51,029 nt of DNA, from assembly GCA_964534545.1 (NCBI GenBank), contig CAZHQS010000001.1:1-51029 (forward strand), given 5' to 3'. The position numbers were made by a program, and so were the translations under genes. Positions 15,701 through 19,069 of this stretch are shown here, piece after piece (the first letter of the stretch is position 1; each line of letters opens with the position of its first letter). The DNA is from Candidatus Hydrothermarchaeota archaeon (lineage in GTDB: Archaea > Hydrothermarchaeota > Hydrothermarchaeia > Hydrothermarchaeales > JAADFM01). The notes beneath the pieces are model-generated. The model saw nothing but the letters and a program-made list of their open reading frames with translations. It had not been told where the DNA came from and searched no databases.

Positions 15701-16039
15701 TCATGTCCCCTGGCGGCCGCAGTTCTTGCACTTGACGCCATTTTCACAGAAGATGCTGGCCGTTTTAAGGAGATGTTTGTTCTTCTCAAGGCAGAGTAGA
15801 ATGTCATCAGCTGGGAGAGGTTCCCTGATGAACAGGGCCCTGTATTTCCGGGATGCCCTGACCGCTAGCTCGCGGTCGTGGGTCACCATTAGACAGTTCA
15901 ACTTGGAGAGGAGGTGCAGGATCTCCTCGTCACTCATGCTGGTATCTATGTCCCCCACATGGAGGGTCCGGGTCCCGTGGTTGAGGGTCTTGACCTTCTT
16001 GGGGATGTTCACATCAAGGATCACATCCACTACCATCAT
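15701..16039 (-). CDS. PIN-like DUF5615/Mut7-C-type putative RNase with C-terminal Cys cluster
   Basis: 112 aa. VVDVILDVNIP..., SDEEILHLLSKLNCLMVTHDREL, and C-terminal CENGVKCKNCG. Confidence 0.5.
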   Translation of the reverse strand: MMVVDVILDVNIPKKVKTLNHGTRTLHVGDIDTSMSDEEILHLLSKLNCLMVTHDRELAVRASRKYRALFIREPLPADDILLCLEKNKHLLKTASIFCENGVKCKNCGRQGT

Positions 16040-16079
16040 ACCACATCCTCGTCGGCTACCACCGTTCTGGACCCTACCT

Positions 16080-16256
16080 TCACTTTAACCATTCGAACTC
16101 ACTTTTAAGCCTGTCCAGTCTCTGGTACAGGGCGTCGATCTCGGCGTTCATCTCCTCCATGGACAGGCCCAGCTCCTCCTGGCTTGCCCTGATGACCGCC
16201 GCAATCTCCTCCAGTCGTTCCCTCTTGTATTCCAGGAACTCGTCCTTATCATCCAT
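16080..16256 (-). CDS. 58-aa acidic coiled-coil protein coupled to the nrdD-like gene
   Basis: ATG at 16256 lies 1 nt after the upstream TGA (16258-16260). MDDKDEFLEYKRERLEEIAAVIRASQEEL... The track ORF starts 30 nt further up inside nrdD. Confidence 0.45.
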   Translation of the reverse strand: MDDKDEFLEYKRERLEEIAAVIRASQEELGLSMEEMNAEIDALYQRLDRLKSEFEWLK

Positions 16257-16257
16257 C

Positions 16258-18420
16258 TCATCTACCTCTCTTATCCTGGTAATCATTGATTGAGTATCCT
16301 TCCACCTCCTCCGAAGCGCAGGTGTAGGTCCAGTAGCCGATGAGGGTGTCCTTGGCGATTCTCCTAGTCTGTTCCCACATGGCCTCCGGGGAGGGATTGG
16401 CCTCCTCCATACAGACCTGGGCCATCATTCCCCCGGTATTCAGGGGATGGAAGGCCCCCTCTAACCGGAGCCTCTCCATCAGGGGCACCCGGGCATCCAC
16501 CCGGACATGGGAGGAGTTGGTGTAATATATGCTCCCGGCCTCCCTGTCCCCCTGGACCACGGCCCTGGATGAGAACCTGCCATAGTCGAGCTTTGCCAGG
16601 CGGTAGGCCGTGGACTCTGCCGGGCTCTGGCTCAGGACCCACCGGAGTCCCGTCTCCTCGCTCCAGCGCCTGGTGGCCTCTGACATATATCCTACAACCT
16701 TCAGGCCGAAGCGCCAGGCAGCTTCGTCCTGGTGCATCTCATGGCCCGTGAAGGCCCTGCACATCTCGTTGACACCCACGTAGCCCAGGGAGTGGACCGC
16801 CCGGTTTATCCTGTAGTAGGGCTCCCCCTCCACATCCTGGCTCAGGAAGGGCAGGTGGCCGCCCTCCAGCCTGCTCCGGATGATGTCCCTTTTCACCTCG
16901 ATGGTCCTCTTGGCCATCTCCATGCGCTCCTCCAGGATCTGGTAGAACTTCGAATCGTCGCCGGCTGCCTCGTAGGCGATCCTGGGCAGATTGACGGAGA
17001 CCACCTGGAGGCTCCCGGTGCGCAGGGTCCCCCTCATCAGGTCCTCCAGGTCTTCCCTGTCAGGTTGCAGAAGGAGTCTGCCGCCCTGGGCGAAGGTATT
17101 GTCCGGGAGGTAGTCAGCATGTAGATTGAGGAAGTAGGGGGTCCCGTATTTGACCGCCGTTTCATGTACCTGGACCATAAAGTCGTCGTAGCCCTCCTTC
17201 TTCAGGTCCTCCTTTCTCAGCTTGTAGTTAGGCCGGGGAAAGGAGAAGGGCTTCCCGGTGTGGTCCCCCTCCAGGTAGACCTCGGTGAGGGCCCGGGCAA
17301 AGAGCCTGGCCTCCTCTTCGAAATCACCATAGGTGACCCGGTCCCTGACTATGCCCCCAGGGAGAACGGCCGGGACGTCGGCCACCATGGAGGGGCACCC
17401 GTACTCGATGTCTATATCTGAGAAGACGGTCTGACCCCCCCGCCCCACGTACATCTGGCTTATCTCATAGATGCACATCTGGGCCAGCTGTTTTATCCTG
17501 GGGTAGTCCAGGCCCTCCAGGTAGGGCGCAAGCCAGAGGTTGAAGAAGTCCAGATCCTGACCCCCGGCGAAGTTGGTCTGGGCCGCTGCCAGGACCTTGG
17601 CGGCATGGAGGACGGCCACCTCGGCCTTCTTGGCCGGTCCGGCCACGGAGGTGTGCTTCCCGGTCCCGTCCACCTTCAGGCCGGTCCTCAAAAACCACCG
17701 GAGGTCGTGCTGGCCGCAGTAGGGCCTGGTGGGGAAATACTCCAGGTCATGGATATGGATGTCCCCCCGCATGTGGGCATCGGCCAGGTCCAGGGGCAGG
17801 ACCTTCAGGAGGGTGTACTCCCTGAAGATGTTGTCTGCCATGAGCTTGTGGATGGTCTCGGGGTTGTGCAGGTTGGCCCTTTCGGCGGAATCTATCTCAA
17901 TGAGGCGGGTGGCATCGTAGACCGGCATCCCCAGCCGGGTATAGTCCGCCCGGGCCTCCTCCAGGCCGTGCTCCAGAAGCTTGACGTTGACGATCTCCCT
18001 GATCAGGGGGCCGCTTATGAAGTCGAGCTTCAACCGCCGAAGCTCATCCTCCGCCTCCCTGGCCACATTCTCGGCCACCTCCTGGGGGATCCTGGTTTCC
18101 TGTAGCAGGGACCGGGTAATCTTTTTCCTGTCGAAGGACTCGATGGTGTTATCCGAGGTCCGCACCTTCATGGAATGAAACTGCCTGTAGCGCTCGGCAT
18201 CCTCGGGGCTCTTCCTTGCAAGGGCCTCCAGGGTCTCCTGCTGGAGGTCCCTGGTGGATATGCCGTCATAGACCTCCCGGGCCACCTCCTGGGCCACCTC
18301 GGCTGCCGTGTAGAAGCCGATACCTGCCTCCACGCACTCCCTCATTATGACGTTGGGGTCGAAGTTCTCGGTATCTCCGGAGGACTTTACCACCCTGACA
18401 CCATACTTTGCCACTGCCAT
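16258..18420 (-). CDS. nrdD: class III (anaerobic) ribonucleotide reductase homologue with ATP-cone; catalytic motifs atypical
   Basis: ATP-cone at the N-terminus. GDIHIHDLEYF..YCGQHDL, GKPFSFPRPNY, GTPYFLNL and VVSVNLPRIAYEA match NrdD. ATG 18420 is preferred over TTG 18456. See the finding on the missing Cys. Confidence 0.75.
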   Translation of the reverse strand: MAVAKYGVRVVKSSGDTENFDPNVIMRECVEAGIGFYTAAEVAQEVAREVYDGISTRDLQQETLEALARKSPEDAERYRQFHSMKVRTSDNTIESFDRKKITRSLLQETRIPQEVAENVAREAEDELRRLKLDFISGPLIREIVNVKLLEHGLEEARADYTRLGMPVYDATRLIEIDSAERANLHNPETIHKLMADNIFREYTLLKVLPLDLADAHMRGDIHIHDLEYFPTRPYCGQHDLRWFLRTGLKVDGTGKHTSVAGPAKKAEVAVLHAAKVLAAAQTNFAGGQDLDFFNLWLAPYLEGLDYPRIKQLAQMCIYEISQMYVGRGGQTVFSDIDIEYGCPSMVADVPAVLPGGIVRDRVTYGDFEEEARLFARALTEVYLEGDHTGKPFSFPRPNYKLRKEDLKKEGYDDFMVQVHETAVKYGTPYFLNLHADYLPDNTFAQGGRLLLQPDREDLEDLMRGTLRTGSLQVVSVNLPRIAYEAAGDDSKFYQILEERMEMAKRTIEVKRDIIRSRLEGGHLPFLSQDVEGEPYYRINRAVHSLGYVGVNEMCRAFTGHEMHQDEAAWRFGLKVVGYMSEATRRWSEETGLRWVLSQSPAESTAYRLAKLDYGRFSSRAVVQGDREAGSIYYTNSSHVRVDARVPLMERLRLEGAFHPLNTGGMMAQVCMEEANPSPEAMWEQTRRIAKDTLIGYWTYTCASEEVEGYSINDYQDKRGR

Positions 18421-18631
18421 CTTTATTGACCCCGACGTATTTAAGTTTTCGAACAATAGTATCCTAAACTGTTAACCAATTCTAAGTATCATACATATAT
18501 AAATGTTTCTGACTGGTTATGTTAACTATAAAGGGGAAATTATTTATATATGTAAACCAACCGATATTGGATAGGTATCAAATCTCTTTAGTGGTTAGAA
18601 AGGTTAACCGATGCCACCAGTGGAGTGAAAG

Positions 18632-19069
18632 ATGGACGAAACCGATAGGAAGATCCTTCAGGTGTTGATGGAAAATTCCCGGACCTCCTACAAGGAGATC
18701 GCCAAGTCTGTCCAGATATCGGATGTGGCCGTCCACAAGAGGATTAAGAAGCTCCGTGACGTCATAGATTCCTTCACCATAACCGTGAAACAGGGGGAGA
18801 TGGGCAAGGGGGTCTGCGCCCTTGTTCTCATCCGATGCGAGGTGGGCAGGACAGGGGAGATCGGGAAAAGGCTGGCCGAGATCCCGGACGTGGCGGAGGT
18901 CTACCTCTCCCTGGGGGACTGCGACATCATAGCCAAGGTGAGGACCGGGACCATGGATACCCTGAAAGAGATGGTGGAGAAGGAGTTCTCCAGGATAGGG
19001 GGCCTCATCGAGATTCGGACCAACGTGGTCTTTGACTGCCTGAAGGAGGAGATCAACCTGGTATTTTAA
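18632..19069 (+). CDS. Lrp/AsnC family transcriptional regulator
   Basis: 145 aa. DETDRKILQVLMENSRTSYKEIAKSVQISDVAVHKRIKKL HTH plus a RAM domain. Confidence 0.9.
   Translation: MDETDRKILQVLMENSRTSYKEIAKSVQISDVAVHKRIKKLRDVIDSFTITVKQGEMGKGVCALVLIRCEVGRTGEIGKRLAEIPDVAEVYLSLGDCDIIAKVRTGTMDTLKEMVEKEFSRIGGLIEIRTNVVFDCLKEEINLVF

Follow-up and report, generated by a model that had tools for sequence, protein, structure and literature searches.

A class III ribonucleotide reductase homologue of Hydrothermarchaeales that has lost its radical residues and is probably kept as a nucleotide-sensing pseudo-enzyme

This study concerns a gene for a homologue of NrdD, the class III (anaerobic) ribonucleotide reductase (RNR), on a 51,029-nucleotide (nt) stretch of DNA from a Candidatus Hydrothermarchaeota archaeon of the order Hydrothermarchaeales (assembly GCA_964534545.1, contig CAZHQS010000001.1). 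The whole stretch is called the window below, and the NrdD homologue is called the target. The target is probably a dead descendant of the thiol-dependent class III NrdD that was resident in this lineage, an enzyme of the type with a QCCR motif, and it would have been retained as a non-catalytic, nucleotide-sensing pseudo-enzyme. Homologues that have lost catalytic parts are referred to as dead, and those that are catalytically complete as live. The genome is a 1.93 Mb metagenome-assembled genome (MAG) of 225 contigs that is 98% complete; McrA was not found in it. Homologues of the genes that flank the target carry the names Hydrothermarchaeota or Hydrothermarchaeales at NCBI.

The family of the target is not in doubt. 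It scored 447.7 bits against the Pfam NRDD profile (PF13597, cut-off 26.2), covering profile positions 7-507 of 562, and 450.1 bits against NCBIfam TIGR02487 (cut-off 326.35), covering positions 5-526 of 581. The Pfam ATP-cone profile (PF03477) matched two stretches (E 1.1e-15). A first-pass annotation of the window, made by eye, had called the protein a class III RNR homologue with an ATP-cone, and the profiles bear this out with two cones. No domain besides ATP-cone and NRDD was found with Pfam or NCBIfam, and this includes DNA-binding domains. An AlphaFold2 (AF2) model built from 50 homologues had a predicted local distance difference test (pLDDT) score of 88.1 and a predicted template modelling (pTM) score of 0.84. 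The modelled barrel is complete and keeps the finger hairpin (residues 455-463), the element for which the first-pass annotation had proposed a structure prediction. The two cones, each a β-hairpin with four helices, lie at about residues 19-94 and 96-172, and residues 716-732 are predicted to form a disordered tail (pLDDT below 50). When the model was compared with the PDB using Foldseek, the 36 best matches were all class III RNRs, from S. thermophilus (9D3X), P. copri (8P2x), T4 (1H7x) and T. maritima (4COx).

The mechanical open reading frame (ORF), 16258..18456 on the minus strand, encodes 732 amino acids (aa) and opens at TTG 18456. This TTG falls within TGTTCGAAAAyyTAA, a non-coding motif that is conserved upstream of nrdD in five loci. 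The true start is therefore taken to be ATG 18420, which gives a protein of 720 aa. Residue numbers follow the 732-aa version.

The thiyl-radical cysteine is absent. The first-pass annotation had read A-Q-G-G-R-L, with codons GGC GGC, at the place of the finger-loop cysteine, and its register proved correct in two alignments. In a HMMER search of the PDB, the S. thermophilus NrdD segment 'PMGCRSFLQ' was paired with 'AQGGRLLLQ' of the target. When the target was aligned by MAFFT to 104 catalytically complete homologues, G458 and G459 took the places of two cysteines whose columns are invariant to 97% or more, those of the thiyl-radical Cys and its redox partner. Misalignment of the cysteines was ruled out, as the two alignments are independent and agree. 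The alignment with the 104 homologues placed neither a Cys at the finger loop's tip nor a canonical glycyl-radical motif in the target. Both cysteines of the SCCR motif are essential in the NrdDs of T. maritima and N. bacilliformis (tmNrdD and nbNrdD), and mutation of either one inactivates the enzyme (PMC4493059). Because both are missing from the target, no thiyl radical should be able to reach a substrate. The closest homologue, P0002, is 84% identical, 774 aa long and fully canonical. Its finger region reads FAQCCRLVLQPD, and it carries the QCCR motif, the Zn ribbon and RITGYY.

The C-terminal Zn ribbon and the glycyl-radical loop are eroded. Three of the four Cys columns of the ribbon are deleted, the NRDD profile match stops at position 507/562, and the last 60 aa hold no CxxC pair, as the first-pass annotation had stated. 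That annotation had also taken 'TLIGYW' for the remains of the glycyl-radical motif, which was a misreading. 'TLIGYW' is a conserved segment, a strand, that stands ahead of the Zn ribbon in canonical relatives, and it is therefore not a degenerate glycyl motif. The actual remnant, recognised by DNA-level homology to the canonical 3' end, is 'CASEEVEGYS-IND-YQ' (residues 713-727). Several changes separate this tail from the canonical one. A 66-nt in-frame deletion took the first CxxC and half of the second, two 3-nt deletions removed the Arg codon and one Tyr codon, and the codon for the radical Gly became one for Asp (YS-IND-Y). A further deletion of ~56 nt brought a frameshift, so that the frame now ends at a TGA that lies 1 nt ahead of the next ORF's ATG. 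The R-[IV]-x-G-[YF] loop is thus gone from the target, its Gly replaced by Asp and its Arg deleted.

Other catalytic parts have changed as well. The NxN substrate flap, which contacts substrate in P. copri NrdD (PMC11226230), reads E-R-A-N for E-N-A-N (N193R), and the next invariant Gln (Q197) is deleted. At positions invariant in live enzymes the target also carries G302D, K409R, T612S and H681Q. It retains 157/179 of the columns that are invariant in live enzymes. The bottom-face Cys247 and the SPAES phosphate loop are also retained. His681 is absent from 15/15 dead homologues, and in the older dead lineages the entire finger loop is deleted. Within the window no NrdG, NrdH or glycyl-radical domain is encoded, by profile search or by tblastn (E>0.2 throughout); matches to TIGR02491 were confined to other contigs of the genome. 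The absence of NrdG from the window, noted on the first pass, is thereby confirmed. By its sequence, then, the target has none of the hallmarks of a working class III RNR: it has no thiyl Cys, no Zn ribbon, no glycyl loop, no activase in the operon and no intact NxN flap. We infer that it is incapable of ribonucleotide reduction. The earlier suggestion that it might be differently activated is unlikely, since the thiyl cysteines themselves are missing.

The target evidently is the resident NrdD of its lineage in an inactivated form and not an added paralogue, because its locus is fully syntenic with that of its canonical, 84%-identical homologue. In the canonical loci of P0002 and P0004, a divergent Lrp/AsnC gene is followed by genes for NrdD, a helical protein of 57-58 aa, an NrdH-like thioredoxin (Thioredoxin_3), the radical S-adenosylmethionine (SAM) activase NrdG and a DUF5615/Mut7-C-like protein of 90-115 aa. 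The ancestral operon order is accordingly Lrp | NrdD, 58-aa protein, NrdH-like thioredoxin, NrdG, DUF5615-like protein. The target locus is this arrangement minus nrdH and nrdG, and a DUF4350-like flanking gene is common to the target and P0002 loci. The first-pass annotation had proposed a non-catalytic paralogue that keeps nucleotide sensing. Lack of catalysis and retention of sensing are supported by the loss of the radical parts, the conservation of the cones and the purifying selection described below; the term paralogue does not hold.

The distribution of the dead form was surveyed in 35 genomes of Hydrothermarchaeales. A complete resident-type NrdD is present in 7 genomes (G003, G007, G009, G013, G015, G024 and G025), none of which has another NrdD. 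About 26 genomes carry a dead resident-type NrdD, which has no Cys pair, no glycyl motif and often no finger loop. In 20/26 of these, another complete NrdD accompanies the dead one, and the other 6 either come from incomplete assemblies or have class II RNRs. Class II RNRs are found in 31/35 genomes, and one adjoins the dead NrdD in eight (G004, G006, G008, G010, G012, G014, G018 and G021). The gene of the target is persistently linked to Lrp, to the DUF5615-like gene and, in other families, to class II RNR genes.

A maximum likelihood tree was built with the finger-loop and C-terminal columns removed. On this tree the dead state needs three origins: the target with its same-genus relative (G001), the P0011/G020 type, and an all-dead clade of 21 rows. 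A single dead clade was rejected by the approximately unbiased test (delta lnL 262, p 8.6e-5). The resident NrdD was apparently inactivated independently, at least 3 times. Long-branch effects could fuse independent losses within the large dead clade but could not create separate ones. The two dead copies of the genus, target and G001, group together in the protein tree with 95-98% support in the Shimodaira-Hasegawa-like approximate likelihood ratio test. Synonymous distances are 0.70 for target-P0002, 0.87 for target-G001 and 0.83 for G001-P0002.

The dead genes were then examined for selection, using pairwise ratios of nonsynonymous to synonymous substitution (dN/dS, or omega) estimated by the Nei-Gojobori method (NG86) for pairs in which both copies are dead. 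All values lay between 0.06 and 0.27. They were 0.06-0.10 among three genomes of genus g18, 0.15 for G004/G012, 0.20-0.21 for G008/G016 and G028/G033, and 0.265 for target/G001, where dS is ~0.9. When neutral evolution of a 2160-nt frame was simulated, 3 of 2000 runs kept the frame open at 0.1 substitutions per site, and none of 2000 did so at 0.2 or more.

Constraint is concentrated on the cones. Column entropy across residues 21-180 (cones and linker) was equal or lower in dead proteins compared with live ones; ATP-cone 1 taken by itself was no more variable in the dead proteins than in the live ones, and within the dead family conservation is highest in ATP-cone 2 and its linker. In every barrel window entropy was higher in the dead proteins, the worst being the NxN flap, residues 261-300 and 321-360, the finger loop and the C-terminus. 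The invariant columns from R99 to D181 are retained in 14-15 of 15 dead homologues. In 5/6 dead pairs dN/dS was lower in the cones (0.02-0.23) than in the barrel (0.07-0.32), and the measurable live pair showed the reverse (cones 0.105, barrel 0.055). A Tajima relative-rate test counted 73 unique substitutions in the target and 14 in P0002 (p 2.5e-10). By region, the counts for target and P0002 were 61 and 12 in the barrel, and 5 and 2 in the cones, the 5 target changes being spread over 168 cone sites. The dead copies are, to judge from these substitution patterns, under purifying selection, and the main constraint now lies on the two ATP-cones instead of the barrel.

Taken together, the dN/dS ratios, the open frame, the cone constraint and a conserved control region (below) speak for a protein that is expressed, under selection and no longer catalytic, and in which the double ATP-cone is the key part. 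We further infer that the target binds ATP or dATP and serves as a sensor or as a regulatory subunit. When nucleotide binds to the cone of characterised NrdDs, their oligomeric state changes, and so does the order of flap and glycyl-radical domain (PMC11226230).

In genomes with another complete class III system, the resident NrdD has lost its finger-loop cysteines, its Zn-ribbon/glycyl domain, part of the NxN flap, and nrdH and nrdG. What is retained is an intact, well-folding protein together with its promoter and the genes for Lrp, the 58-aa protein and the DUF5615-like protein. A mechanism can be proposed for this remainder. The double ATP-cone would bind ATP or dATP, and the cones and barrel scaffold would respond with a change of conformation or oligomeric state. 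The scaffold, switched in this way by nucleotide, would bind or release a partner, for which the DUF5615-like protein, the 58-aa protein, the catalytic RNRs and Lrp are candidates. The partner would in turn link a process in the cell to its dNTP/ATP status.

Several points weigh against a selected sensor. The target/G001 omega of 0.27 (barrel 0.32) is the highest of the dead pairs, which places the target among the least constrained copies. Synonymous distances are large (dS 0.7-0.9), and the NG86 estimator is crude. Phylogenetic breadth is not the same in the live and the dead set compared for entropy. The cone hairpins, VVKSSG and VRTSDN, deviate from the KRDG consensus, as do those of live relatives. 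Finally, the genome is a MAG in 225 contigs with 2.2% contamination.

The features of the locus are listed in the table.

Features of the nrdD locus in the window (positions of the whole stretch)
Feature	Positions	Strand	Basis or remark
DUF5615/Mut7-C-like PIN-type protein with C-terminal 4-Cys cluster	15701..16039	minus	last gene of the nrdD operon
40-nt spacer from loss of nrdH and nrdG	16040..16079	minus	comparison with canonical locus L009
58-aa helical (coiled-coil-like) protein	16080..16256	minus	conserved operon member in live and dead loci
Dead NrdD coding sequence	16258..18420	minus	720 aa from ATG 18420; stop TGA 16258-16260
Eroded Zn-ribbon and glycyl-radical domain remnant, residues 713-732, CASEEVEGYSINDYQDKRGR	16261..16320	minus	DNA homology; AF2
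Finger-loop Gly458-Gly459 (GGC GGC), replacing the Cys-Cys pair (thiyl-radical Cys and redox Cys)	17080..17085	minus	HMMER, MAFFT, codon reading
Degenerate NxN substrate flap, E-R-A-N for E-N-A-N	17872..17883	minus	N193R; next invariant Gln (Q197) deleted
ATP-cone 2 and linker	17941..18171	minus	residues 96-172; PF03477 covers 96-172
ATP-cone 1	18175..18402	minus	residues 19-94; Pfam; AF2 β-hairpin and four helices
Divergent Lrp-nrdD control region	18421..18631		five-locus alignment
Lrp/AsnC-family regulator	18632..19069	plus	divergent from nrdD in live and dead loci

The control region was aligned for three dead and two live loci from several families. Three GTTAAC-containing boxes, two TATA boxes and the element TGTTCGAAAAyyTAA are conserved between dead and live loci. 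The intergenic elements comprise GTTAACCTTTCTAACC, the two TATA boxes, a further pair of GTTAA[CT]A cores and, directly before the start codon, TGTTCGAAAAyyTAA. The conserved boxes are probably operator sites for Lrp.

Directly downstream of the target, separated from its stop codon by 1 nt, is the ATG (16254-16256) of the 58-aa ORF, a spacing that the first-pass annotation had given correctly. The encoded protein is 72-78% identical to the products of ORFs 3' of nrdD in the G001 and P0002 loci and is missing from the older dead lineages; no family match was obtained with Pfam, NCBIfam or PADLOC. A displaced glycyl-radical domain was considered for this ORF and ruled out, as it has neither Cys nor a Gly motif and also follows intact NrdDs. 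The spacer beyond it opens with a remnant of the nrdH start, 'ATGGTTAAAGTGAAGGTA' (MVKVKV), which is a deletion scar. A few nrdH start codons are kept in both the target and its same-genus relative, and the deletion junctions of the two differ.

The last gene of the operon belongs to a family in which Pfam DUF5615 matches 38/39 members and Mut7-C matches 26/39. Its invariant residues are D8, D29, D36 and D54, which are putative catalytic Asp residues, together with C82, C97, C103 and C106. The gene was found in 25/35 genomes of the order as a single copy each, and in 21/25 its position is directly downstream of the resident NrdD, whether that is live or dead. The proteins are 59-87% identical across the order. 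The family comprises 71 clusters, all at least 62% identical, almost all of them from MAGs named Hydrothermarchaeota. An AF2 model compared with the PDB by Foldseek gave the PIN protein 1o4w as its best match, with an E of 0.06 that is below significance, so the label 'PIN-like' rests solely on the Pfam profiles. PADLOC matched none of the three proteins (dead NrdD, 58-aa protein and DUF5615-like protein), and no toxin-antitoxin family was matched. Assignment of the operon to a defence system was dropped because PADLOC had no match for any of its proteins.

This neighbourhood suggests two further roles. Under the first, which we consider unlikely, the NrdD body would bind, inhibit or scaffold the DUF5615/Mut7-C-like protein, either by itself or along with the 58-aa protein; no nucleotide sensing would be needed, and loss of the body would be harmful. 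The gene is single-copy where present, nearly confined to the order, well conserved and usually next to the resident NrdD, and its Asp residues and 4-Cys cluster are invariant, all of which is consistent with such a partnership. However, some genomes with a dead NrdD (f8, g11) have no DUF5615-like gene, neither PADLOC nor any toxin-antitoxin family gave a match, and the concentration of constraint on the ATP-cones is left unexplained. Under the second role, a speculative one to which we likewise give little credence, the double-cone NrdD would gate the putative PIN-type nuclease of its operon by the ATP/dATP pool, with the 58-aa protein as adaptor, and this second, non-catalytic job would outlive the enzyme. 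If this were true, the system would be an RNR-derived nucleotide-sensing switch over RNA or DNA cleavage, and the repeated and independent way in which it was 'distilled' from a live enzyme would illustrate the birth of such sensors.

It is somewhat less likely still that the target is a young relic, a redundant resident nrdD that is decaying without function after its replacement and whose frame is open by chance or because the loss is recent. Decay would fit the substitution rate of the target lineage, which is accelerated about five-fold, and the tail, which was eroded by several deletions and a frameshift. It would also fit the omega of target and G001 and the functional RNR back-ups in the genome. 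But the ORF is intact at a synonymous divergence of ~0.9 from the dead same-genus copy, with an omega of 0.26, and none of the simulated neutral frames stayed open at a distance of 0.2 or more. By a rough hand count, 14/45 aligned nt differ between the tail remnant and the canonical sequence. This is about what neutral drift would give over most of the target branch, so the inactivation is, as a rough estimate, not very recent. The dead state also occurs in ~26 genomes of several families with omega as low as 0.06, the 168 cone sites hold only 5 unique changes, and the promoter is conserved.

The nucleotide-sensing pseudo-enzyme remains the probable reading, and it has also to be set against a still active enzyme. 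The first-pass annotation had proposed a genome search for a second RNR and for nrdG, and both were found. Contig C154 carries a second class III system with genes for NrdD, an NrdH-like protein and an NrdG-like protein, the last being the only NrdG-like gene of the genome, and contig C167 carries a class II-type RNR. The NrdD of C154 is split (locus L001 1450-3300, minus strand). Its barrel ORF ends in 'SPEF[ST]SCLDCG..RGL*' after the first CxxC of the Zn ribbon, and a separate ORF with its own ribosome-binding site begins 'M..CP[HC]CGS..VE[HY]ITRVTGFFSK..SWNKGKI', thus supplying the second CxxC and the RVTGFF glycyl loop. The free-standing glycyl-radical peptide of this genome is 58 aa long.

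The split is conserved in 17/35 genomes: the target genome, those of loci L040-L043 and 12 more. This C154 type is accompanied in the order by a third NrdD type, found in families f4 and f6. In L040-L043 (G030, G011, G023, G019; P0192-P0214) the glycyl-radical peptide is fused to an NrdH-like thioredoxin (CPRCP), the whole protein being ~150-175 aa long, which puts the radical cofactor and the reductant on one small polypeptide. About 23 protein clusters carry Pfam Thioredoxin_3 together with the C-terminal piece of NRDD. Spare-part glycyl-radical proteins are stated as known for formate lyases only in a 2026 review (PMC13450708), and our full-text literature search found no description of a split NrdD.

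A free-standing glycyl-radical peptide with its NrdG could in principle serve the target in trans, or the target could catalyse a different reaction, and the retention of Cys247 and of the SPAES phosphate loop would agree with some residual chemistry. We regard an enzyme of this kind as very improbable. Both finger-loop cysteines are absent, and mutation of either inactivates characterised enzymes (PMC4493059). His681 is lost from all 15 dead homologues, the NxN flap is degenerate, the older dead lineages delete the whole finger loop, and the first CxxC, for docking of the Zn ribbon, is deleted. An assembly or sequencing artefact or a chimeric contig, which the fragmentation and contamination of the MAG might suggest, can be set aside almost entirely: the same architecture occurs with independent sequence in the same-genus genome and ~25 others, and several changes that fit together would have to be explained (two codons, four deletions, two genes lost).

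Some further observations were made on the relatives of the target. In the eight genomes in which a class II RNR adjoins the dead NrdD, and in L013 (a contig of GCA_043820925.1), the RNR genes form super-clusters. In these, a complete NrdD with NrdG and one or two genes for class II RNRs immediately precede, on the upstream side, the dead NrdD and DUF5615-like gene; that of L013 also holds a CobA-type adenosyltransferase. In the loci of genus g18 (L027-L029, L036 and L037), a divergent NrdG-like radical-SAM gene lies between the dead NrdD and the DUF5615-like gene. Its product is 29-35% identical to the NrdG of the canonical operon, and no glycyl loop is left there for it to activate. NrdD relatives of the Archaeoglobales type (P0026, P0027, P0029, P0031, P0033, P0034, P0036, P0038 and P0039) are ~1140-1170 aa long and contain intein/LAGLIDADG domains (PF14528, PF14890).

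The target and dozens of proteins like it are called 'anaerobic ribonucleoside-triphosphate reductase' in databases, and this name misleads the metabolic reconstruction of uncultured archaea. The order also offers a natural experiment, with live and dead versions in one orthologous group of one archaeal order and at least three inactivations. Such matched live and dead orthologues make a regulatory or moonlighting role of ATP-cone RNR scaffolds, and the target of such a role, directly testable. The radical cysteine of RNRs is treated as universally conserved (PMC4493059), and no description of a catalytically dead class III RNR (NrdD) was found in a full-text literature search.

Among known systems, the target shares family and fold with the thiol-dependent NrdD2/NrdD3 enzymes of the Cys-Cys type (N. 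bacilliformis, T. maritima; PMC4493059). Its live, 84%-identical sister is of the QCCR type, with NrdH-like and NrdG genes in the same operon. The target itself differs from these enzymes in its Gly-Gly pair, its eroded Zn ribbon and glycyl loop, its degenerate NxN flap and its lack of nrdH and nrdG. The best structural matches, the NrdDs of P. copri (8P23; PMC11226230) and S. thermophilus (9D3X; PMC12662201), likewise have an N-terminal cone, a linker and flap, and a ten-stranded barrel. In contrast to them, the target has two tandem cones with non-consensus hairpins. Its output must differ from theirs, because no glycyl-radical domain or substrate chemistry remains.

NrdR is the bacterial repressor of RNR genes and consists of a Zn ribbon and an ATP-cone. 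By analogy the target may act similarly, as an ATP-cone protein without catalysis that is associated with RNR genes. Unlike NrdR, it has no detected DNA-binding domain and keeps a 540-aa RNR barrel; the two are homologous in the cone only, and the target does not belong to the NrdR family. To our knowledge archaea lack NrdR, and the target bears on how archaea without it regulate RNR and the supply of dNTPs. Dead RNR subunits that are retained non-catalytically are found in class I, with yeast Rnr4 and the β-herpesvirus R1 homologues M45/UL45. These have likewise lost catalytic residues, but they belong to another RNR class and another domain of life, and their secondary functions are unrelated. 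Judged against all of these, the target is apparently an NrdD-derived pseudo-enzyme with two cones and an operon of its own (Lrp, the 58-aa protein and the DUF5615-like protein).

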